Assembly (NCBI GenBank): GCA_047602425.1
Contig: JASGHG010000001.1
Coordinates: forward strand, 4,704,001-4,768,000
Source of the DNA: Nibricoccus sp.
Lineage (GTDB): Bacteria > Verrucomicrobiota > Verrucomicrobiia > Opitutales > Opitutaceae
Reading direction: 5' to 3'
Length of the DNA: 64,000 bases
A program made the position numbers and the translations under genes. The notes under the pieces were generated by a model. That model was not told the origin of the DNA. It saw only the letters and a list, made by a program, of their open reading frames with translations, and ran no database searches. Positions 7,244 through 40,749 of this stretch are shown piece by piece (positions within the stretch are counted from its first letter, which is position 1; every line of letters begins with the position of its first letter).

Positions 7244-7849
7244 ATGGCCAATTACCTCGCCATACACTCTTTCTGCCAATCGCTCTGCGATTATCTTTCG
7301 CAACGGTACGCAACTTACGTGCCGCCGCCCGGTGTCCCCGCTCTGCCGAAGGCCACCTTTACCGTCCTCAGTTCCTCGAAGTTTAGTTCCAACGATAACG
7401 TCCAGGAGGAATCCAGTTCCACGGTTTCACTTTTTTTGCATCGCGTCTCGATCAACAACCATTTGCGCAACTCCCGCGCGGGCGGCGCTACCGGGCCGCT
7501 AGGACTCGATCTGCATTTTCTCCTGACGATCTGGGCCGACAAAGCCGACGAGGAACACATCCTGCTCGCTTGGACGATGCATGAACTGCATCGCCATGCC
7601 TTTCTCGATACGAGTTCGCTCAGTGCCGACGCCCACTGGGCGGTCGACGAACAGGTTAACATCGCTCCGGGCGAACTTCCGCCGGAAGAGATGGCTCGCA
7701 TTTGGGAGGCGTCGCATCGCGGTTACCGTCTCAGTTATCCGTTTGTCGCGCGAGTCATTCGCATCAGCGACGATCCCGCCGTCTCCACCACACCTGTCGT
7801 GGCTACGCGTTTTAGTTACACCGACAATCTCAAGGAGACGGTGCCATGA
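7244..7849 (+). CDS. DUF4255 / Pvc16-Afp16-like tail cap (terminator) protein
   Basis: Motifs VSLFLHRVSINNHLRN, LDLHFLLTIWA, EHILLAWTMHELH, EEMARIWEA; first gene of the operon. Confidence 0.85.
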   Translation: MANYLAIHSFCQSLCDYLSQRYATYVPPPGVPALPKATFTVLSSSKFSSNDNVQEESSSTVSLFLHRVSINNHLRNSRAGGATGPLGLDLHFLLTIWADKADEEHILLAWTMHELHRHAFLDTSSLSADAHWAVDEQVNIAPGELPPEEMARIWEASHRGYRLSYPFVARVIRISDDPAVSTTPVVATRFSYTDNLKETVP

Positions 7850-8622
7850 TCAAGGAACGCATCGATACTCGTATACTTGGAGCGGTGCGTTGGGTTGATG
7901 CCGTCACGCTCGCGCCGATTCCCTATCCTCTTGTCGCCACTGGCGCGCAGCTTCGCTTCACGCGCAATCTCAGCGGACTCTGCGTTATCACGCACGCCGA
8001 CGGGCTCGAGAAATACACGCCGACTTTTAAGCTCACCGATCTTTTACCCGCCGATGTTGTCACCACGGGTTCGCTTGGCCGTTCCGGGCAGGTTGAAGAT
8101 CCGTCCGGAAATTATTTGCCGACGAAATTCACGCTCAGTCTTCCGCGCGATCCGAGCCCGGCTCTGGTAGGTCCCAACAACGACCAGCGTCCGCCCAATT
8201 CGCTTTTCAGCCCGTTTGAAATTGGACTCCTGCCCTCGCCCACTTCGCGGGTCGCGCCGGGTTTCGCTCAGGTTCGCGTGCTCATTCTCGACAACGCTTC
8301 GAACCCAATTCGCAACGCCCTCGCCCGCGTCATGGCGACAGCCGACGACGCGCTCCTTGGCTGCGGCCTTTCCGATCAGCGGGGAGAAGCCCTCGTCGCC
8401 ATTCCCGGCCTCAAACATTTCGCGCCCGGCGACACCGAAGACGAAGTCGTCAGCGTCGTGACCGAAGCCAGGCTCGAAATCATTTTGCCGCCGAATACCG
8501 AACCAATTGTCGACTGGACGGCGTTGCGCGACGCGACAGTCGCCGCCGGCAACACCGATCCCGAACTTCTGCACCTAAAACCCGGCGCATCCTACAGCCG
8601 CCACTATCCCTTTACGACCTAA
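7846..8622 (+). CDS. CIS-associated protein with a carboxypeptidase-regulatory-like beta-sandwich; possible cap adaptor
   Basis: ATGA overlap with the cap gene; PIRNALARV...GLSDQRGEALV pattern; position between cap and sheath. Confidence 0.55.
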   Translation: MIKERIDTRILGAVRWVDAVTLAPIPYPLVATGAQLRFTRNLSGLCVITHADGLEKYTPTFKLTDLLPADVVTTGSLGRSGQVEDPSGNYLPTKFTLSLPRDPSPALVGPNNDQRPPNSLFSPFEIGLLPSPTSRVAPGFAQVRVLILDNASNPIRNALARVMATADDALLGCGLSDQRGEALVAIPGLKHFAPGDTEDEVVSVVTEARLEIILPPNTEPIVDWTALRDATVAAGNTDPELLHLKPGASYSRHYPFTT

Positions 8623-8668: not shown

Positions 8669-10477
8669 ATGCCAGAATACCTAGCGCCCGGAGTGTTCGT
8701 TGAAGAGACAAGCTTCCGGAGCAAATCCATCGAAGGAGTAAGCACCAGCACCACCGCGTTTGTCGGGCCCACCCGTCGTGGTCCCGTTAACGAGATTCCT
8801 GAACTCCTCACCAGCTTCGCAGACTTCGAGCGCATCTACGGTGGTGTGGATGATCTCGGCAGCGGCTCGACCGCCAAAACCAACTATCTCGCCCACGCGG
8901 TCACGGCCTATTTCAACGAAGGTGGCGCTCGCCTCTATGTGGCCCGCGCCTTCCCGATCACCGGCACGCTCACCGAACCGGATCCGTTTGCCACGAGCCC
9001 CAGCGCGGGCACCCCGGCCAAGGCCTACGCCACCGTGGTGATTCCCGCTTCGGGTTCGGGCAGTTCCGCGGTGCCTGCAGCCAATGTCGGTCACTTCCAA
9101 GCGCGCTTTCCTGGTGCAGCCTACAATGGGAAAATCACCGTCGTCCAACGTGCCGCTTTGTCTTCGGTGGACGCGGCTAAAAAAGCCATCGACGGCAGCT
9201 TGTTCCGTGTGACGGTGACGACTGGTTCTGGTAGCAGCGCCACCACCACTGTCACTTTTTTCACAAAGAAAGGTGCGGTTTTCACCGGCGCGTCCTCCTC
9301 CGATGCATTCCCCAGCGCCGATGCGGCCGGCACGGCGATCGAGCTCCTGACTCTTGACGTGATCACGGAGGACGATCGTGGCGAACCACTTGGTACCTAC
9401 GAAGGCCTCGGTTACCATCCCGATCACAAGCTCTACATCGGCTGGGTGCTCGCCATCGACCAAAACAAGCGCGCCGACCATCTCTCCACTTCGTTTGCGT
9501 TCAAGCCGGCATCGACCAGCATCACGGCGTTTCAGCTGCAAAAAGTTTTCGAGCCCGCCAGTGGCACGACGTCGAAGACCTTTACCTTGGCCAATGGAAC
9601 CGAGCCGACTTACACGAAAAACGATTTCGACGCCGCGCTTTCGATCATCGAGGGCATCGACGATGTCTCCATCGTGGCCGCGCCCGGACATACCACGATC
9701 GATACCGCCATTGCCAATTCGCTTGTCACGCACGCCGAGAAGCGTCGCTCCTATCGGATCGCCGTCCTGGAAACGCCGAAGAGCCTGCTGCCGACCGGCG
9801 CCCGCGACTATAAGGCCAAGATCGATTCGAAGTACGCCGCGCTCTATTATCCATGGGTCGTTGCGCCGAACCCTAACTTTGATCCAAACAACCAGAACAC
9901 GGATGCTGAGGTCGTTCTCCCGCCTTCCGGTTTCGTTTGCGGCATCTATGCCCGTAACGACATCGAGCGCGGCGTGCACAAGGCTCCCGCCAACGAAGTC
10001 GTTCGCACCGCCTTGCGCTTCGAACGCCTCGTCAACACCGGGGAACAGGAAATTCTCAATCCTGCCGGTGTGAATTGCCTGCGCTACTTCGCCGGCCGCG
10101 GCAATCGCGTCTGGGGCGCCCGCACCACGTCGTCCGACCCCGAGTGGAAGTACGTCAATATTCGCCGCTACTTCAATTACCTAGAGCACTCCATCGACGT
10201 CGGCACGCAATGGGCGGTCTTCGAGGGTAACGGCGAACGTCTCTGGTCCAACGTCCGCGATACGGTCACGGGTTTTCTTTTCAACGAATGGGTCAACGGC
10301 GCCCTTCTCGGCGACAAGCCCGAGCAGGCCTTCTTCGTGAAATGCGACCGTTCCACCATGACCCAAAACGACCTCGATAACGGCCGTCTCATCTGCCTCA
10401 TCGGCGTCGCGGCGATCAAGCCCGCTGAATTCGTCATCTTCCGCATCGGCCAAAAGACCGCCGATGCCCGTTCCTAA
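8669..10477 (+). CDS. Major contractile tail sheath protein
   Basis: MPEYLAPGVFVEE, TAFVGPTRRGP, AALYYPW, RGVHKAPANE, VWGART, WKYVNIRR, KPAEFVIFRI. Confidence 0.96.
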   Translation: MPEYLAPGVFVEETSFRSKSIEGVSTSTTAFVGPTRRGPVNEIPELLTSFADFERIYGGVDDLGSGSTAKTNYLAHAVTAYFNEGGARLYVARAFPITGTLTEPDPFATSPSAGTPAKAYATVVIPASGSGSSAVPAANVGHFQARFPGAAYNGKITVVQRAALSSVDAAKKAIDGSLFRVTVTTGSGSSATTTVTFFTKKGAVFTGASSSDAFPSADAAGTAIELLTLDVITEDDRGEPLGTYEGLGYHPDHKLYIGWVLAIDQNKRADHLSTSFAFKPASTSITAFQLQKVFEPASGTTSKTFTLANGTEPTYTKNDFDAALSIIEGIDDVSIVAAPGHTTIDTAIANSLVTHAEKRRSYRIAVLETPKSLLPTGARDYKAKIDSKYAALYYPWVVAPNPNFDPNNQNTDAEVVLPPSGFVCGIYARNDIERGVHKAPANEVVRTALRFERLVNTGEQEILNPAGVNCLRYFAGRGNRVWGARTTSSDPEWKYVNIRRYFNYLEHSIDVGTQWAVFEGNGERLWSNVRDTVTGFLFNEWVNGALLGDKPEQAFFVKCDRSTMTQNDLDNGRLICLIGVAAIKPAEFVIFRIGQKTADARS

Positions 10478-10504: not shown

Positions 10505-10954
10505 ATGCCTCGCAGCACTCCCTACGGCGCCTTCAACTTCTCCGTAAACCTCAATTCCCCCGGCGTCGATCCGGCCTCCGAGCTCGGCGGCTTTTCCGAC
10601 GTCTCCGGCCTCGTCACTGAATCGGTCGTTGCCGAATATCGCAACGGCAACGCCAAGGAAAACCACGTCAAAAAAATCCCGCTGATGCACAAGGTGGGCG
10701 ACGTCACGCTCAAACGCGGCGTCGTCGACTCGACCGAATTCTTTGCGTGGATCAAGGACACGCGTGAAAAGGGCTACTCCTCCAAACGCGATGTCGTCAT
10801 CACGCTTCGCGACGAGACCGGCGCCGATGTCCGCAAATGGAAACTCCAAAGCGTACTCCCGCTCAAATACACCGGCCCAACTCTCGCCGGTAAAGGTGGC
10901 GATGTCGCGATGGAGGAACTCGTCCTCTCCTCCGAAGGCATGGTGATCGAGTAA
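10505..10954 (+). CDS. Tail tube protein (T4 gp19-like, Afp1/5 class)
   Basis: GGFSDVSGL, EYRNGN, DVTLKRGV, VAMEELVL; directly follows the sheath gene. Confidence 0.94.
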   Translation: MPRSTPYGAFNFSVNLNSPGVDPASELGGFSDVSGLVTESVVAEYRNGNAKENHVKKIPLMHKVGDVTLKRGVVDSTEFFAWIKDTREKGYSSKRDVVITLRDETGADVRKWKLQSVLPLKYTGPTLAGKGGDVAMEELVLSSEGMVIE

Positions 10955-10968: not shown

Positions 10969-12540
10969 ATGTCAGGCCTCCTCTTCAAGGACGCGCAGCC
11001 TGCTGCGACGTCGTCGCCAAATCGCGCCGACGTCGTCTGCTTCATCGGCTTCGTCGGGCGCCGTGCCACGCCGCTATCCTCGCGCCTCAAGTCCTGGCTT
11101 CAGGACCAAGGCTGGCGGCCGCGCGGCACGCTCGTGCCCGACTTCGATCCGTTGTTCAACACGCCCGTTCCGCTGGAGAGTTTTGAGGCCTTTGATCGCC
11201 TGTTCGAATGGGAAACACGCCCGCCCCAACCGCATGCGTTTTCCTACACAACGTGGTTAGGCGCCGCCGTGCGCTCATTCTTCCGTCAAGGTGGCGCACG
11301 CTGTCACGTTGTGCGTATCGACAATCCGGTTACGTACAAAACCCTCGCCATCTCGGCTTCAGCCGCGGAGAAAGCGGCTTTTGTGGCCAGCCAGCAGGTT
11401 CGTCTCAACCAGTTGCTTCCCGGATTTGTCGGCGGCACTGAGACTCCGACTCCCGCGGATCCTGCAACGTGGAAAGGCCTCGGCGTTCTCCTCGGTCTCG
11501 ACGAAGCCGCCTTCGTCTGCCTGCCCGATTTGCCCGAACTCGTTGCGGACACAGCGCTCGAACCCGCGGGCCTCGCGCCGGTCGAGCCGGGTCCGGAGGT
11601 TTTTGTCGACTACACGCCGGAAGTTGTCCTGCCGAAGGACGAGGTTCGTCAGATTTCCTCGTCACCGGCCTGCACCGAAGCTGGTTATCTCACGTGGCGC
11701 CGTGCGGTCCGTTACGCTGCAAGCTTCATCCGCGACCGACGCCGCGATGTCGAATTGGTTTTGACGCTCCCGCTGCCATCGCCCGATCTCACGCGCAATT
11801 ACACGAGCAATCTCGATCTCGCCAGTGGCGTGCTTGGGCTCGGAAAAACGCTCGACGAAAACGATGGCATCGCCAGCGCATTTCTTCAGCTGGCTTACCC
11901 TTGGGTGTTGACGCCCGGCGCCGAGGCGCTACCTGGCGGACTCGAACCACCCGACGGCGTCTTTTCCGGCGTGCTCGCCCGCGCCATTCCTGAACTCGGG
12001 ATCGCCCACAGCGTAGGCCGTCAGTTTCTCCATGGAGTCCATGGCTTCGAACCCAAACTCACCGGTTCCGATTTGGAATTGGACACGCCGAAAACTGGAG
12101 CCCCCGCTTTGATCTATCGCGTCTCGCTGCTTGGCCAGACGCCCGACGGCAATCGAGTCCTTTCCGACGTCACCACGAGCAAAAGCGAAACCCATCGTCC
12201 CGCTCCAGTCGGACGGCTCACTGCCGCGATCCTGCGCACCTCGCGCCACCTTGGCGAAAGCGTCACTTTTGAGCCCGCTGGCACGGCGCTTTGGGAAAAA
12301 ATTCGCGCTCAACTGGAGCGTTTGCTTGGCGACTTCTATGCCGCCGGAGCGCTGCTCGGCACGTCGACCGAGGAGGCGTATTCAGTTCGTTGCGACGAAT
12401 CCACTACGAACCAAAACGACATCGACAACGGCCGTGTGATCGCGGAGGTCCGTTTCGCGCCGGCTCATCCCGTTGGGCTCATCACGGTCATTCTTTCTCT
12501 CCGCGAAGGCACTGTCACCGCCGTCGGCTCACCCGCCTGA
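10969..12540 (+). CDS. Second, divergent tail sheath protein (possible sheath initiator)
   Basis: DVVCFIGFVGR, AVRSFFRQGGARC, C-terminal AYSVRCDESTTNQNDIDNGRVIAEVRFAP sheath motif. Confidence 0.88.
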   Translation: MSGLLFKDAQPAATSSPNRADVVCFIGFVGRRATPLSSRLKSWLQDQGWRPRGTLVPDFDPLFNTPVPLESFEAFDRLFEWETRPPQPHAFSYTTWLGAAVRSFFRQGGARCHVVRIDNPVTYKTLAISASAAEKAAFVASQQVRLNQLLPGFVGGTETPTPADPATWKGLGVLLGLDEAAFVCLPDLPELVADTALEPAGLAPVEPGPEVFVDYTPEVVLPKDEVRQISSSPACTEAGYLTWRRAVRYAASFIRDRRRDVELVLTLPLPSPDLTRNYTSNLDLASGVLGLGKTLDENDGIASAFLQLAYPWVLTPGAEALPGGLEPPDGVFSGVLARAIPELGIAHSVGRQFLHGVHGFEPKLTGSDLELDTPKTGAPALIYRVSLLGQTPDGNRVLSDVTTSKSETHRPAPVGRLTAAILRTSRHLGESVTFEPAGTALWEKIRAQLERLLGDFYAAGALLGTSTEEAYSVRCDESTTNQNDIDNGRVIAEVRFAPAHPVGLITVILSLREGTVTAVGSPA

Positions 12541-12545
12541 TCATC

Positions 12546-13052
12546 ATGCCTGACTTTGAAACACCGCCTGTTGGAAATTTCCGCTACGAACTGGTTTTCT
12601 CCGAGAACCGTTTGAAAAGCGACGGCGCCCTGCCCAACAGCGAAAAAGGCGTGGCTGGTGGCGCGTTCGCCGAATGCAGCGGCCTTGAGGCAACCATGGA
12701 ACCCAAGGTGATCAAGGAAGGCGGTCTTAATTACGGAACGCATCAGCGCGTGGGCACCGTTTCTTTCGCCACGGTTATTCTCCGTCGCGGAATGACCACC
12801 AACACCGACCTCTGGAAATGGTTTCTCAAGGTCACGCTTTCCGGCGCCTACACCCACCGCATGGACGTGAAAATCCGTCACCTCGATTTTGATGGGACAA
12901 CGGTTATCCGCACGTGGCAACTCGACCGGGCTTTACCCGTGAAATTCAAATCCTCCGACCTGAACGCCAAGAGCGGAGAAATCGCCATCGAAGAGCTTCA
13001 TCTCGTTCACGAGGGCCTCGGCACTCCAATAAGCCATGATCGCTGTCCCTAA
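12546..13052 (+). CDS. Second tail tube protein (gp19-like)
   Basis: GAFAECSGLE, IKEGG, VILRRGMT, IAIEELHLVHEG. Start reassigned to the ATG at 12546, just after the sheath stop. Confidence 0.9.
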   Translation: MPDFETPPVGNFRYELVFSENRLKSDGALPNSEKGVAGGAFAECSGLEATMEPKVIKEGGLNYGTHQRVGTVSFATVILRRGMTTNTDLWKWFLKVTLSGAYTHRMDVKIRHLDFDGTTVIRTWQLDRALPVKFKSSDLNAKSGEIAIEELHLVHEGLGTPISHDRCP

Positions 13053-14007
13053 CACCGTAAAAGCAAAGTTCTCCTACAACAGTTCTGCGGGAGCGCAGAG
13101 CTTCGACGTTAATTTTAATCCCTCCTCGCTCGACTATACCATTACCGCGAACAGTCAGGGCGACGGCGGCCATGCGCAGCAAACCACCGGTTCGGCCAGC
13201 GCGAAGCTCAACATGGAGCTCATCTTCGACACCACCGACACCGGTGACGATGTCCGCTCCAAGACCAACAAGGTCGAGCTCATGCTCCAGACCAGTCCCG
13301 GCACCGGCGATAACCCTCCGCCGCAAGTTCTAAGCGAAGTCACCTTCGAATGGGGCGCGTTTCATTTCATCGGCATCGTCGACTCGTTCAAGCAGACGAT
13401 GGATTTCTTTTCGCCCAACGGCATTCCGCTGCGCGCCGTTGTCACGCTTTCGATGGCGCAAAACGCCTATAAATTCGACCAGCAGGGCTCCGGCCAAACC
13501 GCCAACGTTGATCAAACTCTCGACGTTGCCGGTGGAAGCCCTTCCGACCTCGCCGCCGCTGCTGGCGATCCAACCGGCGCCCGCGGCATCGCCAGCGCCA
13601 ATGGACTCGAAAGCCTTCGTGCCGGAGTTTCGGGCGGCATCTCCGTTGGCGGTGGCGTCTCGATCGGTGCCGCCGCCTCATTCTCCGCTGGGGCCAGCGC
13701 CAACGCCGGCCTTGGTGCTGGCCTTGGGTTCGGTGCCTCGGCTGGAGCTGGCGTTGGCCTCTCAACCGGTGCAGGCATTTCCGCCGGTGTTTCCGCGAGC
13801 GCCGGCGCCTTCAGTGAACTCCACACCGAAGCCACCGCCGTCGGGGGAAAATATCTCGACGCCTCGCGTTTGCTTGCGACGGCTTCCGCCCCCGGCGTCG
13901 CTCCCGGTGCGCTTTTCGATGTCACCGGCAAAGCTATTGCCCAAAGTTCCAGCACCTTTAAAGCCGAAGTCGGCGCCACCAGCGGGCTTCGCTTCGACGA
14001 CAATTAA
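13036..14007 (+). CDS. CIS tube-initiator protein (Afp7-like) with a Gly/Ala-rich C-terminal region
   Basis: VNFNPSSL, LNMELIFDT, VTFEWG, FSPNGIPLRAVVTLS motifs. Confidence 0.82.
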   Translation: MIAVPNTVKAKFSYNSSAGAQSFDVNFNPSSLDYTITANSQGDGGHAQQTTGSASAKLNMELIFDTTDTGDDVRSKTNKVELMLQTSPGTGDNPPPQVLSEVTFEWGAFHFIGIVDSFKQTMDFFSPNGIPLRAVVTLSMAQNAYKFDQQGSGQTANVDQTLDVAGGSPSDLAAAAGDPTGARGIASANGLESLRAGVSGGISVGGGVSIGAAASFSAGASANAGLGAGLGFGASAGAGVGLSTGAGISAGVSASAGAFSELHTEATAVGGKYLDASRLLATASAPGVAPGALFDVTGKAIAQSSSTFKAEVGATSGLRFDDN

Positions 14008-14183: not shown

Positions 14184-15266
14184 ATGCCTCCTCCTGCCGA
14201 TACCGAACGCACCTACGTCGCCAATCCGACCGTCCGACTCGACGGTCAGGAAAACGAACGCATGGCGGCGCTCATCACCTCCATGGTGATGAACGAACAG
14301 GAGGGCGGGCTCTCTTCGCTCGAGCTTCGACTCACCAACTCCGCGTCGCTCCGCGGGGGCGGTGCTGAATACGCCTTCGACGTCGGTGGCGAACTGGCTT
14401 TTGGCGCCGAGATCGTCATTGGCGCCGGCGACACTGCGGCGCCTGTCGAAATTTTCCGCGGCATCGTCACAGGGCTGGAAGGCATTTTCAACAAGGAGAC
14501 TCCGCCGGAAATCATCGTTCTTGCCGAAGACGCCCTGCAAAAAGCCCGCTGCAAACGCCGAACCAAAGTCTACGAAGACCAGTCGCTCGCCGATATCGCC
14601 CGCGCCATCGCAGGCGACCATGGTCTCACGCCGCAGATCGACGGTCTCGATCAAAACTTCGGAACCCAGGTGCAGCTCAACGAAACCGACCTTGGTTTCC
14701 TTCGCCGCCTCATTGCACGAGTTGATGCCGATCTCCAGATCGTCGGCAACAATCTGCAAATTTCACCGCGTGCCAATGTCCGCCGCGGAGAACTCGAACT
14801 CGCCCTGGGCGGAGAACTCAGGGCCGCCCGTGTCCTCGCCGACCTTGCCCATCAAATCACGAAATCCACCGTGAAAGGTTGGGATGTATCCGGTGGTTCG
14901 GTCATGGATGGCGAGGGCGCGGAAAATGCCCTCGGCCCCGGCGAAGGCAAAAAAGGCGGCGAAACTCTGTCCGATGCTCTCGGGGACCGCACGCATCACA
15001 GCTGCCACCACTTCACTTTCAATCAGGACGAAGTCGACGCCGTCGCCACCACGGTCCGCAACCGCCGCGCCCGCCGCTTCCTTCGGGTGCAGGGCGAGAC
15101 CACCGGCTCCCCCGCACTTCGGGTCGGTACGCATGTGAAGCTCACCGGCCTCAGTACTTGGTTTTCGAATACATTCTACGTCACGTCGGCGCGCCATCTC
15201 TTCGACCTGCGCTCCGGTTATCGCACCGAGTTTGAAGGTCAGTGCGCTTACCTCGGAGACACCTGA
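14184..15266 (+). CDS. Baseplate hub / phage late control D family (gp27-like, VgrG N-terminal half)
   Basis: IFRGIVTGLE, VQLNETDLGFLRRL, VKGWD, GSPALRVG, FYVTSARHLFD...GYRTEF. Confidence 0.9.
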   Translation: MPPPADTERTYVANPTVRLDGQENERMAALITSMVMNEQEGGLSSLELRLTNSASLRGGGAEYAFDVGGELAFGAEIVIGAGDTAAPVEIFRGIVTGLEGIFNKETPPEIIVLAEDALQKARCKRRTKVYEDQSLADIARAIAGDHGLTPQIDGLDQNFGTQVQLNETDLGFLRRLIARVDADLQIVGNNLQISPRANVRRGELELALGGELRAARVLADLAHQITKSTVKGWDVSGGSVMDGEGAENALGPGEGKKGGETLSDALGDRTHHSCHHFTFNQDEVDAVATTVRNRRARRFLRVQGETTGSPALRVGTHVKLTGLSTWFSNTFYVTSARHLFDLRSGYRTEFEGQCAYLGDT

Positions 15267-30907: not shown

Positions 30908-32875
30908 ATGGCGAAAACTACTCTCATGCAGCTCGCTCTCGCCGCCGTCGCCCAGCGCGTCGGCGTCCAGACGGGAACCGATTCGACTGAGGCAAATTAC
31001 CTCGCCGAACAAGCGCGCGGTCTTCCTGACACGTCGGAGGGCCTGGCCGATCTCGCACGTCAGATCCTTCGCAAGCCTTCCGGGGACGATACCTCGCTTG
31101 TCCGCCTTGCTTCCACTTGGAAACTTTCGCTCGCGGAAACACTGTCGCTTGCCTTGGTCGCCGCGATTGAACGCGACCTTCTCGCCGGTCGAGCCATCGC
31201 CTACGCCCAAACTCCCGTCGGCGGTTCGAGACCCACGCTTGGTCTCCTCGCAGAATCCTTTGGCCGCATCGACAACTCGAAGCTCTTCAATCCCGTCCAA
31301 CTCGCCAGCAGTCCCGCCTTCCTCAGCGGTGCGCTCACCTTGCATAACGACGGCGCTCCGCTGCCCGAACGTCCCGTTTCGCTTTCGCTTCCTCTCTGCC
31401 TCGCTCTTTCTGGGGAAGAAACCAACTGGCCCGGCGGCGTGATCGACCATCCCGATGCGCAACTCCCGCTCCCGGAATCCGTCGTCGCCCAATGTCGCCA
31501 GCAGGCTTCTGCTCTCTCCCGGGAGTCGTCCTGCGTGCTCGTCCTGCGCTCTTCCGCTCTTGAGGAAACTCGCGCCGCCGCCACTTCCATTGCGCGTACG
31601 CTGAACAAACGACCCTTTATCGCCGAAACGGTCGCCACCTCGGGCCTTGCCGCGTGGCTGATCCTGCGCGATCTCATCCCCGTTTTCGTCCTCGAACCTG
31701 GTCCCGGCGAAACCAAACAGGTTCCTGCCATTCCTCTTTACGATGGCCCCGTGCTCGTCGCCGCCGGTATCGAGGGCACACTCGAGGCTCCCGGTCGTCA
31801 GCTCACGCATTGGAGCCTTCCGCTCCCGACGCTGGCCGAACGCGAGACGCTTTGGCGCCAGGCACTCCCGCATGGCACCGCCGCAGCCGAACTCTCGCGC
31901 AGCCATCGCCTCAGCACCGCGCGCATTTCCCAACTGGGTAAACTCGCCCTCCATCGCGCCCACCTGGATGGCCGAACCACTCCGGATGCCACAACCGTTC
32001 GCGACGTTTCCCGCTCGGGCGAAGGCGCCGGCCTTGAATCGCTCGCGCAACTCATCGCCGATCCCATCCCGGACGACGCGCTTGTCCTCCACCCGGAGTT
32101 GCGCGCCGAACTCGACGCCCTTCTCTCCCGCTGCCATCACCGCGATGGCCTGACTTCCAACCTCGGCGCGGCTTCCGCCACCCGCTACACCGCCGGCGTG
32201 CGCGCTCTTTTTGTCGGACCATCCGGTACCGGCAAAACCCTCGCCGCCTGCTGGCTCGCCACGCGCTTGGGGCTTCCCCTTTACCGTGTCGATCTTGCCA
32301 ACATCAACAGCAAGTACATCGGCGAAACGGAGAAAAATCTCGCGCGCCTTCTCGCCCGCGCCGAGCGCACCGAGGCCGTCCTTCTTTTCGACGAGGCCGA
32401 TTCCCTTTTCGGCAAACGCACCGACGTTCGCGAATCCAACGATCGTTTCGCCAATGCCCAAACCAATTACCTGCTCCAACGCATCGAGACCTTCGACAGT
32501 ATTGCCATCCTGACCAGCAATAGTCGCGCGCGTTTCGACAACGCGTTTTCCCGTCGCCTCGATCTCATCGTCGAGTTTCCCTTGCCCGCACCCGCCGAGC
32601 GCCGCGCTCTCTGGCAGGCGCACCTCGGCGAGGCCCATTCGCTCACGATGCAGGAACTCAATCTCCTTGCAGGTCAGTGCGATTTTGCCGGCGGCCAGAT
32701 TCGAAATGTCGTGCTCACCGCCGCCGTCGCTGCCCGGGGCAACGGCCAGATCATCGACTTTGCCAAACTACTCCACGCGCTCCAAGCGGAGTATCGCAAG
32801 GTCTCGCGGCCCATACCGCCCGCTCTCGTTGCGCAGAAACCGCCCATGGCAACCGTGTCCGCCCGCGCACTCTGA
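30908..32875 (+). CDS. AAA+ ATPase (Afp15/Pvc15-like)
   Basis: Walker A GPSGTGKT, SKYIGETEKNL, Walker B VLLFDEAD, LFGKRT, NYLLQRIE. Confidence 0.95.
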   Translation: MAKTTLMQLALAAVAQRVGVQTGTDSTEANYLAEQARGLPDTSEGLADLARQILRKPSGDDTSLVRLASTWKLSLAETLSLALVAAIERDLLAGRAIAYAQTPVGGSRPTLGLLAESFGRIDNSKLFNPVQLASSPAFLSGALTLHNDGAPLPERPVSLSLPLCLALSGEETNWPGGVIDHPDAQLPLPESVVAQCRQQASALSRESSCVLVLRSSALEETRAAATSIARTLNKRPFIAETVATSGLAAWLILRDLIPVFVLEPGPGETKQVPAIPLYDGPVLVAAGIEGTLEAPGRQLTHWSLPLPTLAERETLWRQALPHGTAAAELSRSHRLSTARISQLGKLALHRAHLDGRTTPDATTVRDVSRSGEGAGLESLAQLIADPIPDDALVLHPELRAELDALLSRCHHRDGLTSNLGAASATRYTAGVRALFVGPSGTGKTLAACWLATRLGLPLYRVDLANINSKYIGETEKNLARLLARAERTEAVLLFDEADSLFGKRTDVRESNDRFANAQTNYLLQRIETFDSIAILTSNSRARFDNAFSRRLDLIVEFPLPAPAERRALWQAHLGEAHSLTMQELNLLAGQCDFAGGQIRNVVLTAAVAARGNGQIIDFAKLLHALQAEYRKVSRPIPPALVAQKPPMATVSARAL

Positions 32876-35800
32876 TGGCGAACCGCTCCTTCAATCCTGT
32901 GCTCACCCGACGAGCCGCGCCGGCTCCCAAGACCGCTGCGCGTCCTGTCGCGCAGACGCGCGTGACCGGAGCCGCCGCGGGCACGCCGCGCTTCGCCGCG
33001 TCGCTTCCTAAACCAGTTGGTATCAGCCAGCGCAACGACCGGTGGGAAAATGAGGCGCGCCGCGTTTCGTCCTCCGTTCGTCACTTCTCGCCCGCGACGC
33101 AGCACGGTCCTGCGCCATTTGTTCCTTCTTCCGCAACGCCGGTCGCGACCGATACCGCCCGCGCCAAACCGCTTCACCGTCCACCGGGCGCGCGTTCCAT
33201 CGCCACGCGCGCTGCTTCCGCGAATACGTTTCACGCGGTGCCAAAGGTTTACCCGGGCTTTTCGCCCGCGACCAGTTTTCCCACTGCCAATGGTCCTCCG
33301 GTCCACGACATCACGCCCACTGCTCCCCTCGGCGGTAGCTCAGGGTCGCCTTTGAATCCTGTGATCCGCCAGCGCCTCGAATCCGTTCTCGGAGTAAAAC
33401 TTTCCTCCGTTCGAGTGCACACCGGTCCCGTTGCTGACCAAGCCGCGGCTCAATATGAAGCACGCGCCTTTACGGTTGGCAGTAATATTTATTTGCGCTC
33501 TGGCGAGAGCCCCGCGGACTTGGAATTGATCTCGCACGAGACAGCCCACGCCGTCCAACAAAGCGCGACACTTCACGCCGCTTCTCCCCGCGGTCCGCCA
33601 TCGTCCGGAAGCCACTCCATTTCCCGCGCTCCCCTCGGCATGGTGCAACGCTGGGAGACTCCCGGATGGCTGAAGGCCACGGGCAGTGCCATTGCCCACC
33701 CGATCGATACCGCGGGTAAAGTTGTCGATGCCGGAGCCGGCCTCATCGCCGAAGGTTTCTGGGCGGTCGTCGACAAGCTCGCTCCGCAAAAAATCCGCGA
33801 GCTGCTGCACGATATCAAAGACCACGGTTTCATCGGCGTGCTGAAGACCAAGGTTAGCGCCGCCCTCGATTTTGTTTTCAGTTCGCTCAAAGCCCAAGGC
33901 GGTACCGCTGCGAAAATCGCGACGGTTTTCGAAACGCTCATCGCCAAGGCCAAGCCCATCCTCGCCGCGCTCGCCGCCGGCGATTGCAAACCACTCTTTG
34001 CCGCCGTCAAAAGTCTCGGCGATATCCTCGGCAAAATGGCCGGCGATGCCTGGGACAAAATCACGACGTTCCTGAAGCCCGTCGGCGATTGGCTCAGCAA
34101 TGTCTGGAATAAATTCGGCGCACCCGTCGTCGATTTTCTCAAGGAGTTCGCCGCCGACACCTGGGACTGGATCAAAAACGTCGGTCAGGAACTGTGGGAT
34201 CTCACCAAGCCCGTGCGCGACTTCTACTCCGGCGCGTGGACCGAAATCAAAAACCTACTCGGCTTTGGCGAAGGCACCGATGACGATGGTTCTGGCGGTT
34301 TGGTCGGCTGGATCAAGGAAAAGGCCGGCGAAGTCTGGGACGGTATCAAAACCGAGCTCAAACCGATCATCGATCCGATCAAAAACGCGGCGACTGCCAT
34401 CGTCGATTTCCTCCCGATTCAGGACATCCTCAACCTCCGCGAAAAAATCACCGAGTGGATGGACAAGGCCACTGCCATGGCCGACAACATGGACGCTCCC
34501 GACGATCTCGCGGAGAACAAGGACCTGCTCCACGACATCATCCTGCCCGGCATCAAACGCGCCATCGTCAAGCTTCGTGGAAAAGTGGTCGAAGCCTCGA
34601 CGTGGGCCACGACCAAAATCGGCGGCATCGTCACCAAGGTTACCGATTTCTTCACCACGCTCTCCGGCAACACGCTGCTTTCGCCGCTCAAGGGCGTCAT
34701 TCAGTGGCTCAGTGACGAAGCGGTCAAAATCGGCACATGGGCCACAGAAAAGGTGGCGGGCCTCTTCGCCAGTGCCGACCTTGCTCTCGTCACGCTCGAT
34801 TTGTGGATCGAGCCAATCGTCAACGCACTCGGCAAACTCATCTCCGCGCTCGGCGATCTCATGGGTCGTCTCGGCGACCTCATCCTCGGACCGCTCCTAC
34901 TCGTGCCGAAATGTATCCGCGACCCGATCAAGGATTTCATTGTTACTAAAATCCTGTCGCAAATTCCGGTCTTCGCGCAACTCGTGGAATTACCCGCCAT
35001 CTGGGCAAAAGTTTCGCCGGCATTCCGCGCTGCCATCGTCGCCGTTTTCCAAGACGGCAATCTCTTCCGCGCTGCATGGATTTTCTTCCGCACCGTGCTC
35101 GATCTGCTCGGCGTGCCGCCGCAGCTCGTCACGAACCTGATTCGCAACGCCGCGAAGGCGATCAAGGACGTGCTCAAGGATCCCATCGGTTTCCTCGGCA
35201 ACGTGCTCGAGGCGATGAAGCTCGGTCTGCAACAATTCATCGACAACATCGGCAAACATCTCCTCAAAGGCGCTGTCGACTGGTTGTTGAGCGGCGTGAA
35301 AGGCCCCGGCATCAAAATTGCCGATCCATTCGTTATCAATCTCAAGAACGTCCTCGATCTCGTTCTTCAGGTGCTCGACCTGACGATGGAAAAGATTTTC
35401 CAGCGCATCGAAAAGAAGAAGGGCAAGGACGTCGCCGACAAGTGCCGCAAGATCGTCAAGGTCGTCGACAAGGCGCTCGAATGGATTTCCGTCCTCATCA
35501 ACGAAGGTCCCTCCGGCCTCTGGAAACACGTCCAGAAAGAGCTTAGCAACCTCTGGGACACCATGCTGGGCATGGTCATCGACTATCTCATCGGGAAAAT
35601 TGTCCAGCAGGCGACGATCTGGGTGACGAAGACACTCGCGAGCGGCGGTCTCAGCGTGATCATCGACGCAATCAAGGCTGTCTACGATGCCCTCCAAGTC
35701 GTCGCGCAGTACTTGAAGCAGATGCTCGAAGTCGCGAACTCGGTCTGCGAAGGCATTATCGACATCGCCAAAGGCGTGCTCACGAAGGGCGCCAACATGG

Positions 35801-36990
35801 TGGAAAACGCCGCCGCCCGCCTGATCCCGATGGTCCTCGCCTTCCTTGCCCGCACGCTCGGCATCGGCGATTTGCCGGTGGTGATTGGTGAGGGGATCCA
35901 GAAAGTCCGCAAGAAAGTCGAGGACGCCATCGATACGCTCATCGACAAGACCTTCGCCCTGATCGACTGGGCCAAGCAAAAAGGCAAAGACGCCGTCGAT
36001 AAATTACTCAACTGGTGGAAAGTCAGTGAGGACATCAAGGCCGACGATGGCACCACCCATCATGCGAAGCTGGAGGGTGAGCCGCCTGCTCCGGTTAAAC
36101 TTGTCATCGCCAGCGAACCGATGGATGGAGCCGCCGCGATCAAAGCTATCGACAAAAACGAAGATCTTACCGATGCCGAGAAGACGACCTTTAAGGCACA
36201 GGCCACAACGAAGAAGGACGCCATCGAAGCCTCAGTGAAAAAACTCGAGGGCATGAAAAATGTCGAAAGCGCGGGCAATAAACCCAGCGACAAATCGCTA
36301 CGCGACAAAGCGCTCAGCGATGAAACTGACAAATTGCGGGGTTACGTGCGCGAACTTGCTTCGATTCTGGAAAAGTCACTGTTCTCCACCGTGCCGTGGT
36401 CGGAGATTCCGGACACCAAACCATCGCCCGCTTATGGTTCCGGCGCTGCGTCCTCCATGAAAGCCGATCCGTTGACCAATCTTGGAGACGGTGGTTCGGA
36501 GCCGGAAAGTGGCCATGAACCTAAGGGTTGGTTCGAGCTTCAGGAAGCCGGATTTACTGAGGGTGGCTATCGCTACAAGCAGATGCACCTCGTCAATGCT
36601 CGCTTCGGCGGCAAGGGTGTGCGCAACAACCTCACGCCTGGATCGCACCAGAATAATTCGGACCACTTGGGCTCGGTTGAGAATCCCCTCAAGGAACTTG
36701 TCGGCAATGCCCGTGGCGACAGAACCAAGAAGGGTTATCTCTGGTATTCGGTTAAAGTGAATTACGGTGCGGCAAATCGCGGGCCCAAATGGCCGGATTC
36801 ATTCATCAGCAAAAAGACCGGACAGCCTGTCCGCCTGAAAGGCGTTCTGAGCAAGGCCGACTTCGCAGAATCCATCCAATGCGAATGGGGCGTCTACAAG
36901 CGCACCAATAAAAAGTGGACTAAACAAACGTCGGCCATCGGAAGTTTCTCCGTCGGCCCTATCCCGTTGCCACCCTTCGAGACCGTCTAA
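32875..36990 (+). CDS. DUF4157 (eCIS core) protein with a helical middle region and putative C-terminal His-Me-finger nuclease, effector 1
   Basis: Start reassigned to the TGATG overlap at 32873-32877. VRVHT...ARAFTVGSNIY...LISHETAHAVQQ; C-terminal YKQMHLVNARFGGKGVRNNLTPGSHQNN. Confidence 0.85.
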   Translation: MANRSFNPVLTRRAAPAPKTAARPVAQTRVTGAAAGTPRFAASLPKPVGISQRNDRWENEARRVSSSVRHFSPATQHGPAPFVPSSATPVATDTARAKPLHRPPGARSIATRAASANTFHAVPKVYPGFSPATSFPTANGPPVHDITPTAPLGGSSGSPLNPVIRQRLESVLGVKLSSVRVHTGPVADQAAAQYEARAFTVGSNIYLRSGESPADLELISHETAHAVQQSATLHAASPRGPPSSGSHSISRAPLGMVQRWETPGWLKATGSAIAHPIDTAGKVVDAGAGLIAEGFWAVVDKLAPQKIRELLHDIKDHGFIGVLKTKVSAALDFVFSSLKAQGGTAAKIATVFETLIAKAKPILAALAAGDCKPLFAAVKSLGDILGKMAGDAWDKITTFLKPVGDWLSNVWNKFGAPVVDFLKEFAADTWDWIKNVGQELWDLTKPVRDFYSGAWTEIKNLLGFGEGTDDDGSGGLVGWIKEKAGEVWDGIKTELKPIIDPIKNAATAIVDFLPIQDILNLREKITEWMDKATAMADNMDAPDDLAENKDLLHDIILPGIKRAIVKLRGKVVEASTWATTKIGGIVTKVTDFFTTLSGNTLLSPLKGVIQWLSDEAVKIGTWATEKVAGLFASADLALVTLDLWIEPIVNALGKLISALGDLMGRLGDLILGPLLLVPKCIRDPIKDFIVTKILSQIPVFAQLVELPAIWAKVSPAFRAAIVAVFQDGNLFRAAWIFFRTVLDLLGVPPQLVTNLIRNAAKAIKDVLKDPIGFLGNVLEAMKLGLQQFIDNIGKHLLKGAVDWLLSGVKGPGIKIADPFVINLKNVLDLVLQVLDLTMEKIFQRIEKKKGKDVADKCRKIVKVVDKALEWISVLINEGPSGLWKHVQKELSNLWDTMLGMVIDYLIGKIVQQATIWVTKTLASGGLSVIIDAIKAVYDALQVVAQYLKQMLEVANSVCEGIIDIAKGVLTKGANMVENAAARLIPMVLAFLARTLGIGDLPVVIGEGIQKVRKKVEDAIDTLIDKTFALIDWAKQKGKDAVDKLLNWWKVSEDIKADDGTTHHAKLEGEPPAPVKLVIASEPMDGAAAIKAIDKNEDLTDAEKTTFKAQATTKKDAIEASVKKLEGMKNVESAGNKPSDKSLRDKALSDETDKLRGYVRELASILEKSLFSTVPWSEIPDTKPSPAYGSGAASSMKADPLTNLGDGGSEPESGHEPKGWFELQEAGFTEGGYRYKQMHLVNARFGGKGVRNNLTPGSHQNNSDHLGSVENPLKELVGNARGDRTKKGYLWYSVKVNYGAANRGPKWPDSFISKKTGQPVRLKGVLSKADFAESIQCEWGVYKRTNKKWTKQTSAIGSFSVGPIPLPPFETV

Positions 36991-36993: not shown

Positions 36994-39900
36994 ATGCCCG
37001 CGCCCACCTTCAGCCCCAAGACCATCCGCCGCACGGCTGCTCCAGCCGCGCCGGTTCGGCGTGCGGTCAAAGCGGCGGCTCATGTTCAAGGCGCCTCTTC
37101 CGGCATGCCACGTTTTGCCCGCACTTCGCAACCGGTTGCGGCGACTCCCACCGCCAAAATCGCTCCGGCTGTCTCGTCGCCCGCGGCAACGCGACCCGTT
37201 TCAGCCGCGAAGAAAACTCCATCCACCACAGTTGTTCCAACCACAGTTCCGGCTACACCCGATATCCGGTCCCGTTTCGCGCCGCCTGCCAAATCTCCTC
37301 TGCCCCGTCCACTCCCTCTCGTCACTTCGCCGGGCGACCGCTGGGAGCGCGAAGCGCACGATTTTGCCGATTTCGCTACCCGCTTTAATGACCGTCCAAA
37401 ACAATTACTTTCGTCCACAAAACTGGCACCTCTCGTCGCTCCCGTTACGACTTTGCCGATCGTGAGCAGTTCCGGAGCGCCGCTGCCGACCGCCCTGAGC
37501 CGCAAAATCGAAGCTGCCACCGGCCACGGCGTAAGCAGCATTCGTGTCCACGATAACAAAGAAGCGCAACATGCCGCTCAAAGCCTGAAGGCGCACGCTT
37601 TCACCGTTGGCTCCAATATCTATCTAGGTCCAACGGCCAATCCTTCCGATCAGCGGTTGCTCGCTCACGAAACTGCGCACACTTTCCAACAAACATCTGA
37701 AATTCGAGCGTTCAAACCTGCGCTCAAAAGCGCTCAGTCCGCGCGAGGTCCACCAAGGTCACGCATTGATGAAACTGCAGCGCCACGCCTCGACGCGTCG
37801 GTGCCTCAACTCACGCGAGCGCCTCACGGCGCAGTACAACGTTTGGAACTCGATCCTTTGCTGCCGATCGCGACCTATGCGGTCAGCCCGCTTCTTGGGC
37901 CCGTTCTCCTGCCGACGGTACAGTTGGGATCGCGTGGTCTTTTGACGCGTTCGCTTCAGGACACGTTGGACCAGATGCTGTCCGGCGGACTATCGAGAAC
38001 GTTGTCGTTTGTCACCGATAACAGCCTGGAAGTTTTGCTCAGCACTTTCGCGCTCAAGCCCGGCCACTTCTCCTGGCCGCTTGCTTGGTTCCGCGGCTCC
38101 TTGCCCATCATAGAATATTCCAGCCGCGCACAGGATCTTCTTTCCAACAGCCCGCAAGATACTTTTGCCGACAGCCTTCGCGGTTTGAGCCAGATGCTTC
38201 GTGCCGTATTCAATGGAAACTGGCGCTGGCTCGCTGAATCGTTCACCGCAACCCAGCTCTCGTATGCCCAACTCAGGATAAAAATCGGCGCAACGCTGGG
38301 CGATCTCGGCGGCTATATTGGTCAAGCCCAACTCGGCCGACGCCTCGATAGTCTCGCCGACGATCTCCGCGCCAACGCGGCCGTTCTCGATGGTTTCCCG
38401 ACGCTGCGCGCCGACGTGGCTGAGATTCTCGGCTTCATCGATTTCAACAGCCCTACCGCAACGCTCGTCACTTGGGTTGAAAACATCCGCAATGCAGCCC
38501 TCTACGTTCCGTCGCACCTCAAGTCGATCGCCACGGGAATCGAAACCTCTCTGCAACTGGTCGAACCACTCGACCTGCTCCGCGATCTCGGCAAAGGTAC
38601 GCAGACCTTGCGCGACCTCCTCGACGAAGCCGCCGATGCGGTCGAGGAACCCGATAACGTCGCCGACGATGGCCGCCTGTTCAAAGTTGTGCTTCCCGGC
38701 ATCACGAACCAAGCGCGATGGCTCGGGCTCGCCATTGGCGACGCCGCAATTTGGCCGTCCACCTTGTCGCTTTCCTTCCTTGAGGGGGTCCAGAACTGGA
38801 CCACGCAGCTCCACGATATCGGCTATGGGCTTCACGATTGGGTCGAAGCTACGGCCCGGGAAATATTCTTATGGATTTCCGACGTCTTCGACACCTCCTT
38901 CGCGACGTTGGAACAAATCTTCACGCTTTACGACAACTGGACCGAACCACTCGAAGATCTTTTCTCCGCCATGGCGCCGGCCATGACCGATGAGAACACC
39001 AAAGAGGTAAAACCGCCTTTCCTTATCCGCGCGCTTCGAAAACTCGGCGTCCCCGAAGAGCTGCTCAGCCAACTCCAGGCTCACATCAAGAGTCTCGGCA
39101 AAGTTCTCAAGCACCCGTTCAAATTCTTCCGCAATCTCACCTCTGCAATCGTCAAAGGCCTCTACAACTTCGCCGGCAATATCGGACGTCATCTTTTCGA
39201 AGGTATCGCCGCCTGGATTCTCGGCGACTTGCCGATCGCAATGCCAAAATCCTTCGACCTGCCGAGCATTTTTGCGTCCCTCGCCACCTTGCTCGGCCTG
39301 ACGCTCGATCACGTGCTCGATGTTTTGGAGCGCAAGTATCCTGGTGTTGGTCGAAAGGTTCGGCGCGCGCTCGCCGCCGGTACGCTCGCGATCAAATGGC
39401 TGCGGCTCATCTATGAAAAAAAATACGCTGAGCTCTGGGAGGAATTGAAGGCCGAGATCTCGACGTTCTGGTCACAAATCATCGAACAGGTCCAACAAAC
39501 CGTGATCAACATTCTCATCGAGGGTGGCATCACGCTGTTGATGAATTTTCTCACGCCTGGACTCCGTCAGGCGGTTAGCATTATCCGAAAAATCTACCAA
39601 ATCATCAAAAACCTGAAAGCCCAGGCCACTCGCATGATGGGCGTCGTCAATGCGATTTTCCAAAGCATCGACGACATCGTGGAAGGCAAACTCGACAAAG
39701 CCATCGAGTTTGTCGAAAAAACCGCGGTCAAGGTGCTGCACGTCGCTATCCGTTTCTTCGCCGATTGGCTTGGACTTGGCGACATCCCAGCCAAGATCCG
39801 CAAGGCCGTCGACGAGGTCCGCAGCTTTATCGACAAAGGCATCGAGAAGATCATCGATTTCGCCAAAAAGGTTTGGGAGTGGCTCGGCGAAACCGTCGCA

Positions 39901-40749
39901 TCCGTCCTTGAGTGGTGGAAAAACAAAAATGTCTTCCGCAACGAAGCCGGGGAAATTCACACCCTCTACTTCGACGAGAAGATGAACTCCAGCAGCCCGC
40001 CTCTTGCTGTCGCCACCACCCCCAAGGTTCTGAAGGACTACATTGCCGACTACAAAAAGAAGAACACGACCACCGTCGCCGAGGACAAACTCATTGCAAA
40101 AATCGAAACGCATGCTGCCGAGATTGATCGCATCAAGGCCAAAACTGCGGGAAGTTTCGGACAAAAAGATGGCGAAGACATCCGCGCGCACTTCGACGAG
40201 ATCGCCAAACTCCTCGCATCCCTCGGGCGGCCGGAAACCGTCCCTCCAAGCAATGTCAAATGGCTCACGCTTTCTGGAAAGTACAACGATGGCCACGACA
40301 TGACGGCCGATCCGCTTACCCTTGATCCCGGCGGTAATGAGGGGAGCCAACCTTTCGAATCCTCCAAACTCTGGAACGCTGTCAACCAACGCTCGATGAC
40401 CTATATCCGTGGTCACCTCCTGAATCATCATGTGCACGGCCCCGGTGCCATCAAAAACCTCATTCCCATCACCCGCTCGGCCAACGGTCGCATGGAACGC
40501 ATTGGCGAAACGTATGTGAAGGAAGCGGTCATCGGTCAGAAAAAGGTGATCCACTACAGGGTCTGGGCCAAGTTTCACGATCCAAAGCCCAAGCGGAAAT
40601 ACATCCCCGAAGAAGCAGAACTGCCAAAGGAAATTTATATGATGGCCTACTACAAAAACAAAAAAGGCAATCGCTGGGAGACCGACTTCTCCAACCCCTT
40701 TGTCTCCGAAGTCGTGCCGAACGATCTACCTGCCGACACCAAACCCTAG
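36994..40749 (+). CDS. DUF4157 (eCIS core) protein with C-terminal DNA/RNA non-specific endonuclease-like domain, effector 2
   Basis: IRVHD...AHAFTVGSNIY...LLAHETAHTFQQ; C-terminal YIRGHLLNHHVHGPGAIKNLIPITRSANGRME. Confidence 0.87.
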   Translation: MPAPTFSPKTIRRTAAPAAPVRRAVKAAAHVQGASSGMPRFARTSQPVAATPTAKIAPAVSSPAATRPVSAAKKTPSTTVVPTTVPATPDIRSRFAPPAKSPLPRPLPLVTSPGDRWEREAHDFADFATRFNDRPKQLLSSTKLAPLVAPVTTLPIVSSSGAPLPTALSRKIEAATGHGVSSIRVHDNKEAQHAAQSLKAHAFTVGSNIYLGPTANPSDQRLLAHETAHTFQQTSEIRAFKPALKSAQSARGPPRSRIDETAAPRLDASVPQLTRAPHGAVQRLELDPLLPIATYAVSPLLGPVLLPTVQLGSRGLLTRSLQDTLDQMLSGGLSRTLSFVTDNSLEVLLSTFALKPGHFSWPLAWFRGSLPIIEYSSRAQDLLSNSPQDTFADSLRGLSQMLRAVFNGNWRWLAESFTATQLSYAQLRIKIGATLGDLGGYIGQAQLGRRLDSLADDLRANAAVLDGFPTLRADVAEILGFIDFNSPTATLVTWVENIRNAALYVPSHLKSIATGIETSLQLVEPLDLLRDLGKGTQTLRDLLDEAADAVEEPDNVADDGRLFKVVLPGITNQARWLGLAIGDAAIWPSTLSLSFLEGVQNWTTQLHDIGYGLHDWVEATAREIFLWISDVFDTSFATLEQIFTLYDNWTEPLEDLFSAMAPAMTDENTKEVKPPFLIRALRKLGVPEELLSQLQAHIKSLGKVLKHPFKFFRNLTSAIVKGLYNFAGNIGRHLFEGIAAWILGDLPIAMPKSFDLPSIFASLATLLGLTLDHVLDVLERKYPGVGRKVRRALAAGTLAIKWLRLIYEKKYAELWEELKAEISTFWSQIIEQVQQTVINILIEGGITLLMNFLTPGLRQAVSIIRKIYQIIKNLKAQATRMMGVVNAIFQSIDDIVEGKLDKAIEFVEKTAVKVLHVAIRFFADWLGLGDIPAKIRKAVDEVRSFIDKGIEKIIDFAKKVWEWLGETVASVLEWWKNKNVFRNEAGEIHTLYFDEKMNSSSPPLAVATTPKVLKDYIADYKKKNTTTVAEDKLIAKIETHAAEIDRIKAKTAGSFGQKDGEDIRAHFDEIAKLLASLGRPETVPPSNVKWLTLSGKYNDGHDMTADPLTLDPGGNEGSQPFESSKLWNAVNQRSMTYIRGHLLNHHVHGPGAIKNLIPITRSANGRMERIGETYVKEAVIGQKKVIHYRVWAKFHDPKPKRKYIPEEAELPKEIYMMAYYKNKKGNRWETDFSNPFVSEVVPNDLPADTKP

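Follow-up and report, generated by a model that had tools for sequence, protein, structure and literature searches.

The DNA analysed here, hereafter the window, is a stretch of 64,000 nucleotides from the genome of a Nibricoccus sp. (contig JASGHG010000001.1, positions 4,704,001 to 4,768,000). Positions 7244..40749 of the window hold an operon for an extracellular contractile injection system (eCIS), and it is this operon that concerns us, in particular the end of its spike and the gene that stands in the place occupied by the PAAR tip in related systems.

Genes of the operon

The operon comprises 21 co-oriented, stop-free open reading frames (ORFs) on the + strand, every frame intact, with intergenic spacings of -17 to +54 nt; the count takes in a 55-aa ORF at 14010-14177. 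It is present once in the 5.16-Mb, single-contig genome (57% GC). Start codons for tube 2 (12546), the membrane-tailed protein (15941) and cargo 1 (32875) were picked from the sequence, and the operon proteins were compared with Pfam, NCBIfam and PHROGs.

Matches above the curated Pfam cut-offs account for most of the particle. These comprise the cap or tail terminator (Afp16, DUF4255; 7244..7849; Pvc16_N, E 5e-29), sheath 1 (8669..10477; Phage_sheath_1 and 1C), two gp19 tubes (tube 1, 10505..10954, Phage_T4_gp19, E 1e-30; tube 2, 12546..13052, E 5e-30) and the Afp7-like tube initiator (13036..14007; CIS_tube, E 3e-17), the C-terminal half of which is long, Gly/Ala/Ser-rich and of low complexity, with no LysM match in the Pfam scan. 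They continue with the two halves of a split VgrG, namely a gp27-like hub (14184..15266; Phage_GPD, and VgrG_rel at positions 54-346) and a gp5-like spike ending in YTPGAGNIW (15270..15947; Phage_base_V, E 2e-24), and with the gp25 wedge (Afp9; 17530..17916; GPW_gp25, E 5e-21), baseplate J (Afp11; 17921..20140; Baseplate_J, and TIGR02243 over its cut-off at 256 bits) and its Tail_P2_I, Afp12-like wedge partner (20195..22558; CIS12_fam, E 5e-35, below cut-off). The AAA+ ATPase (Afp15; 30908..32875; AAA, E 2e-23) and two DUF4157 cargo proteins (eCIS_core; cargo 1, 32875..36990, E 6e-20; cargo 2, 36994..40749, E 5e-20) complete the set. The nearest solved chain to baseplate J is 9gtp_1K (E 2e-38), and by analogy with Streptomyces coelicolor (PMC12237407) the wedge probably consists of two copies of baseplate J and one of the Tail_P2_I protein.

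The remaining parts are more divergent. Sheath 2 (10969..12540) is 29% identical to sheath 1 and matches the PHROG sheath family (E 1e-13), with no Pfam match at E 0.01. A conserved 258-aa all-beta protein (7846..8622) follows the cap in relatives too; its AlphaFold2 model (predicted local distance difference test, pLDDT, 92) predicts a transthyretin/CnaB-like sandwich, possibly associated with the cap, and its Foldseek matches are generic sandwiches only. The 55-aa ORF is conserved, being recovered in 55 related loci; its size and position make it a candidate Afp6-like spike plug, and searches of Pfam and PDB gave no homology to Afp6. The tape-measure candidate is a 456-aa ORF (29534..30904) with no direct family match: its sole tie is a 48%-identical relative (P0129) that matches CIS_TMP at E 4e-5, below cut-off, so that the tape-measure label given by the first-pass annotation stands only as a possibility. 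Three fibre/crown paralogues (22555..23376, 23397..25415 and 25412..29530) share 25% pairwise identity and a common N-terminal domain resembling NCBIfam CIS13 (CIS13_fam, E 2e-11, 5e-8 and 4e-8, respectively), far below its cut-off; a profile of the first gave no match in PDB. The same annotation listed this trio as a departure from known systems. The shared N-terminus bears out the paralogy, but baseplates with Tail_P2_I and multiple fibres are already published: the eBAP3/5 eCIS of Nachmias et al. 2026 (PMC12923769) likewise have a Tail_P2_I adaptor followed by several fibre genes, and more than one fibre gene is reported there in 23.4% of loci. What distinguishes the window from that type is that the order of its trio does not change across phyla.

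Other parts were looked for and not found. Among the 34 main ORFs of the window, Pfam gave no match to a family of PAAR, capsid, terminase, TssJLM or lysis proteins; no capsid, portal or terminase was found by PHROGs among 20 operon proteins; and neither ClpV nor TssJLM has a representative among the operon proteins in Pfam or NCBIfam. No tRNA was found. We reject a prophage on the ground that capsid, portal and terminase are missing, and a type VI secretion system (T6SS) of types i-iii on the ground that TssJLM and ClpV are. The first-pass description of a tightly coupled, co-oriented 21-gene operon is thus accurate, as are its claims of two sheaths, two tubes, cap, initiator, hub, spike, gp25, baseplate J, ATPase and DUF4157 proteins, all supported by profiles, and of the missing capsid, terminase and TssJLM.

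Placement within the eCIS subtypes

Chen et al. 2019 (PMC6899500) define an eCIS as afp11 plus afp1/5 in one locus with the Afp2/7/8/9/15/16 core. All eight core types were matched here in Pfam and NCBIfam, and DUF4157, which is itself an eCIS marker (PMC8213781), is represented by two eCIS_core proteins. Within this superfamily, subtype IIb is distinguished by a split afp8, one afp11, no afp10 (PAAR) and divergent afp12/13; it also has afp6, is generally without afp14 and carries subtype-specific genes without known domains (PMC6899500). The operon shows the first four of these traits: gp27 and gp5 are separate genes (14184-15266 and 15270-15947), afp11 is represented by one gene in the whole genome, afp12 and afp13 are divergent, with matches to CIS12_fam and CIS13_fam that are below cut-off, and PF13665 has 0 matches in the genome, the sole PF05488 match lying at C1:938.5 kb, about 3.8 Mb from the operon. 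The possible tape measure would be a point of difference, given the usual lack of afp14 in IIb.

Other placements fare less well. Subtypes IIa and IIc need two afp11 genes and PAAR, and their references carry two baseplate J genes; in the operon afp11 is single and PAAR is missing. On the VgrG, which is fused in the IId reference and split here, we reject subtype IId and lineage I, and on the match to IIb a new subtype. The same features set the operon against the best-known systems. Afp and PVC (Ia) share its cap, sheath, tube, gp25, baseplate J, AAA ATPase and cargo at the 3' end, but have a fused VgrG, a PAAR tip, an Afp11/12 wedge and an adenovirus-like fibre. The S. coelicolor system (IId; PMC12237407; PDB 9gtp) has, like the window, one baseplate-J gene and a Cis12 partner; unlike the window it has a fused VgrG and no fibres.

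Phylogeny points the same way. Two quick maximum-likelihood trees of baseplate J were built (43 and 30 rows), with support from the SH-aLRT (Shimodaira-Hasegawa-like approximate likelihood-ratio test) only and no bootstrap; the 43-row tree left out five partial candidates, IIc rows among them, and in the 30-row tree a wrong frame was probably used for one of the IIc rows (Novo_b, branch 5.0). The window falls in a clade of SH-aLRT 100 with Thauera sinica, Accumulibacter, Hydrogenophaga, Sorangium, Nitrospira and cyanobacterial loci, and in both trees this clade stands apart from the IIa, IIc and IId references. The nearest named relatives are Verrucomicrobiota of the Opitutales. The T. sinica genome (CGMCC 1.15731), which we take to be that of strain K11, holds one baseplate J. 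Nine rows given as IIb in Fig. S4 of PMC6899500 are two of Thauera sp. (K11 and MZ1T), Ca. Accumulibacter UW-1, Hydrogenophaga RAC07, Azoarcus KH32C, Sorangium So0157-2, two Myxococcus and R. sphaeroides pRSPA03, Thauera sp. K11 being cited to the species description of T. sinica (PMC9076115); these nine rows were decoded from a coded font, anchored on rows that stand in plain text too. The window groups with genera on the IIb list; a sheath/baseplate phylogeny was among the checks that the first-pass annotation proposed.

Together these data make it very probable that the operon belongs to subtype IIb. Its parts list, which had been called atypical, is a catalogued one, since most of the listed departures from Afp and PVC define IIb (PMC6899500): the split VgrG, the single baseplate J, the lack of PAAR and the divergent fibres are real, but already on record. 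The accompanying description, an eCIS of a little-characterised subtype, was apt. A literature search, for which most subscription papers were beyond reach, brought up neither an experimental study of a IIb system nor an account of the spike and partner module discussed below; IIb is not mentioned in the accessible part of PMC8651086, and in that of PMC6899500 the subtype-specific genes are given no function and the module is not described. The operon is a new member of a known, and apparently unstudied, subtype.

The spike tail and the gene in the PAAR slot

IIb is the only subtype without PAAR, and its contact with the target may differ (PMC6899500). In two IIa references PAAR lies between spike and gp25. 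In the window this slot is filled by a 530-aa protein (15941..17533), here called the partner, the gene for which shares 7 nt with the end of the spike gene and 4 nt with the beginning of gp25. It may well be one of the subtype-specific genes afpIIb1-3.

To see how far the arrangement extends we collected partner homologues, which numbered 412 among 8000 scored candidates; 372 of 410 pattern-matching GTDB stretches encode a relative, and the best 80 loci were kept. In these 80, drawn from many phyla, the gene order from cap to fibres is essentially fixed, which answers the synteny survey suggested at the outset. An automatic count gives the order spike, partner, gp25 in 58 of the 80; in 10 others the locus starts with the partner, and stop-to-stop ordering, frameshifts or contig ends account for most of the remaining non-matching ones. 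The gp25 gene lies -3 to 92 nt after the partner in 79 of 80. Three PAAR queries against the ORFs of the 80 loci found no match in any of them.

The spike itself carries a distinctive end. Where both genes are present, 67 of 69 loci have a spike ending in Y[TS]PG[AV]GN[IVL][WL], with close variants of this motif in the remaining two. For the reverse test, 251 genomes of the phylum of Sorangium were sampled, of which 70 matched, and the 30 best spike loci were taken: a partner lies next to all five spikes with a GN[VI]W tail (one of these loci was already in the alignment) and to none of the 25 without. The coupling holds in divergent members as well. Partners of 780-840 aa, and a copy on a plasmid of Rhodococcus opacus, keep both the spike tail and a hydrophobic tail of their own, and their loci group with the main clade in the baseplate-J tree at SH-aLRT 98. 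In a search for carriers of the long form, Roseomonas, Falsiroseomonas and Caulobacter were among the matches listed and M. xanthus was not. The R. opacus partner was found with a hidden Markov model, tblastn of plasmids having missed it. Its plasmid (NZ_CP095404.2) holds an actinobacterial locus of the same subtype in which the partner is longer by about 110 residues, DUF4157 genes are inserted after sheath 2 and the order of ATPase and fibres is rearranged relative to the usual one.

The loci are kin, and because of this their co-occurrence is not independent evidence of binding; we regard an association between spike and partner, argued from sequence, as slightly favoured over its opposite. 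The spike may instead sharpen itself. Self-tipped phage spikes exist, solved spikes align no further than position 205 of the 229-position spike profile, leaving the tail beyond them, and a near-invariant cysteine of that tail (C204) could bind metal. The particle would then be an ordinary released eCIS, the partner would be a release or lysis factor, a baseplate or cage subunit with a buried helix, or an assembly chaperone, and adjacency within a single clade would explain the co-occurrence without binding. This account leaves unexplained why tail and partner are never seen apart, even with the divergent partners of 780-840 aa, and we consider it rather unlikely.

Absence of PAAR is not universal among IIb-like loci. 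A plasmid locus of C. azotoformans, used as a stand-in for R. sphaeroides pRSPA03, shares the backbone but has a spike of 157 aa, with DUF2169 and a Tox-PAAR-like protein between spike and gp25 (L081:18159-19494), and lies outside the partner-bearing baseplate clade. Because this proxy differs at the tip and falls outside the clade, IIb seems to hold two tip architectures. That the main branch exchanged PAAR for a two-part module, a GAGNIW-tailed spike with a membrane-inserting partner of 530-840 aa, is a proposal to which we give somewhat less than even odds.

The partner has no match in Pfam, NCBIfam, PHROGs, PDB sequences, Foldseek PDB or Foldseek BFVD, and its ESM Atlas neighbours are clusters without a name. 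Its AlphaFold model (pLDDT 86.7; predicted template modelling score 0.79) predicts a split Ig-like sandwich with a helical insert and a hydrophobic tail, W486-P527; helix 492-519 lies in a less confident region. VIA-align places the split beta-sandwich over residues about 12-424. Its top match, complement C5 (Z 7.5, root-mean-square deviation 3.6, 120 aligned), ties with the N-terminal domain of BtaeB (Z 7.4, root-mean-square deviation 3.1, 121 aligned), a cargo loaded on VgrG (PMC13402684). No Z of at least 8 was reached among 48,161 chains, using the whole model of over 400 residues as query rather than single domains, so that one of the known folds may yet underlie the protein. Both likenesses are within the range of generic sandwiches, and that to BtaeB may serve as a lead only.

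A 19-residue hydropathy of at least 1.8 is reached in 83 of 83 homologues (median 2.56), with no such stretch outside the last 70 residues in any of them. Conservation in the 121 close and 57 distant sequences compared is highest over residues 476-525; of the 43 best-kept positions, 14 fall within 488-527, and a net charge of +1 to +4 follows the helix in all 154 sequences parsed, out of 178.

A proposed membrane-docked particle and its alternatives

From these observations we propose the following. The operon would build a headless contractile tail of cap, sheath, tube and baseplate in the cytoplasm, steps which, like contraction, are taken from established CIS biology. The partner would bind the C-terminal tail of the spike and ride on it; its hydrophobic helix would insert in the inner membrane of the producer, so that the cocked particle docks spike-first. 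Contraction would then inject the two DUF4157 cargos with their predicted nuclease tips, the ATPase perhaps assisting their loading. Insertion in the inner membrane is suggested because that should be the default destination of an unshielded tail of such hydropathy, and docking because several contractile injection systems dock on membranes without TssJLM; the lack of a lysis family among the 34 window ORFs also counts in favour of the model. Binding of partner to spike, insertion, the choice of membrane, loading by the ATPase, nuclease activity and the target are all conjectural elements of this scheme, and we assign the model as a whole a probability of about 0.4.

There is precedent for docking, though of a different design. 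The tCIS of Anabaena, SalCIS of Salmonella salamae and the haloarchaeal T6SS of H. borinquense are anchored by, respectively, a fibre helix (Cis13), a hydrolase with three transmembrane segments (SalCis19) and a protein with six (Hbor_38620) (PMC8894136, PMC11566945, bioRxiv 2025.06.01.657177); unlike the window, all three keep a PAAR-like or Cis10 tip. In S. coelicolor the membrane protein CisA, a further precedent, is needed for firing (PMC12237407). CisA is encoded downstream of the baseplate genes and has an unstructured N-terminus with a folded C-terminal domain after the helix, whereas the partner has its folded domain first and its gene overlaps the spike.

Several points weigh against the docking model. 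Contact between spike and partner is argued from sequence, and the co-occurrence may be shared descent, all loci belonging to one baseplate clade. The AlphaFold model is at its least confident in the tail (pLDDT 67-77, then below 50). Conservation residue by residue, together with three cysteines, goes beyond the demands of a plain lipid anchor and would suit a buried packing helix or a target-piercing element just as well. The actinobacterial homologue has the same tail in a different envelope, followed by about 110 further residues. Three fibre-like genes fit a released particle, the PAAR gene elsewhere in the genome could act in trans, and the nuclease matches are below the Pfam cut-off.

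Some of these same points suit a released eCIS with a new tip, in which the partner sits on the spike in place of PAAR and its helix, shielded until firing, inserts in the membrane of the target. Slot, coupling of tail and partner, extreme conservation of the partner tail, the three fibre-like genes and the weak fold likeness to BtaeB (Z 7.4) would all follow. PAAR effectors that carry membrane helices depend on Eag chaperones, and a gene for a shielding chaperone is not obvious here; the BtaeB match ties with complement C5 at 3% identity and may be a generic sandwich; and the Pfam scan of the window gave no lysis family. On balance we think this version rather unlikely.

The cargo proteins have the layout described by Geller et al. 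(PMC8213781), DUF4157 followed by a helical linker and a C-terminal tip. Both have long helical linkers and below-cut-off matches to Endonuclea_NS_2 at the C-terminus (E 1e-4 for cargo 1, a predicted His-Me nuclease tip, and 2e-4 for cargo 2). Cargo 2 is a 24% paralogue of cargo 1 with an RGHL..N motif in its tip, for which PDB gave no match; on sequence both tips are predicted nucleases. Tips differ among relatives, being similar in G018 and different in G029 and G063 (fold guesses by eye). In G063 (L137) the genes after the ATPase encode, by eye, one DUF4157 cargo ending in an OmpA-like, peptidoglycan-binding-looking domain, a second with a His-rich nuclease-like tip and then a small HEAT-like protein. 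No immunity gene was seen between or after the two cargos in the window, which is awkward for the docking model because its producer survives; eCIS toxins are, however, commonly without a following immunity gene (PMC8213781).

Control of the operon likely lies with a divergent LuxR/GerE gene (5557..6690, - strand; Pfam GerE, E 2e-11), which occupies the same place in relative G003; GerE regulators beside eCIS have been described (PMC8213781). A promoter scan was at chance level (one found against 1.5 expected). A look-up of sequencing runs for 7244-17200 gave none, a result that bears on expression in neither direction. Upstream of the LuxR gene, window positions 1-5327 encode two hybrid sensor kinase-regulators, and in G018 and G029 receiver-type genes apparently stand just upstream of the operon (by eye).

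Among 61 relatives, the genome itself included, six have a baseplate-J match, and G003, G018 and G029 share the gene order of the window; 300 other genomes of the phylum yielded no partner gene. Such a range, both patchy and wide, is what horizontal spread would be expected to give. It is conceivable that the operon is a silent or decaying acquired island, for which the patchy range and an IS481-family transposase (40787-42193), 37 nt after the last gene, could speak. Yet all 21 frames are intact and tightly coupled, the regulator is kept and baseplate J is 92% identical to that of a relative, which makes this very unlikely.

The transposase has three more copies in the genome at 98-100% identity. 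Perfect 17-nt inverted arms starting GTAG flank it (40805-40821 and 42177-42193); presumably they are a repetitive extragenic palindromic element that the insertion divided in two. Positions 40876-40917 form a perfect 42-nt palindrome. Beyond is a glycan locus on the - strand (42493-63834) with two GH2 proteins, GH95, GH106, a GH78-type rhamnosidase, a rhamnose mutarotase and symporter and two URO-D-like proteins. The first-pass annotation spoke of a glycan-degrading host, and glycoside hydrolases are indeed present at 42.5-63.8 kb, but no link between them and the operon was seen; we reject one, since two relatives with the same operon have other downstream neighbours. Elsewhere in the genome a separate T6SS-like cluster (C1 about 937.8-949 kb; L133:8815-20000) encodes a fused VgrG and then a PAAR protein with a C-terminal Peptidase_C39-like domain (C1:938-941 kb), several upstream genes having no Pfam match; eCIS and T6SS rarely share a genome (PMC6899500).

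The part of the operon that deserves to be followed up is the membrane-tailed partner. It is a concrete candidate for the replacement of PAAR in a subtype whose specific genes had no assigned function; it offers two testable motifs, the spike tail and the partner helix, and its carriers include culturable, non-pathogenic bacteria such as Thauera sinica and Hydrogenophaga. If the proposal is correct, it would represent a new kind of tip, one linking the spike itself with a membrane, whether as a dock in the producer or as a point that pierces the target, and its anchoring would be unlike that of CisA, tCIS, SalCIS and the haloarchaeal systems. Hundreds of species would then use the module, with a range that runs from Verrucomicrobiota to Accumulibacter, Thauera, Nitrospira, myxobacteria, cyanobacteria and Rhodococcus, and in both wastewater and soil communities such bacteria are central members.

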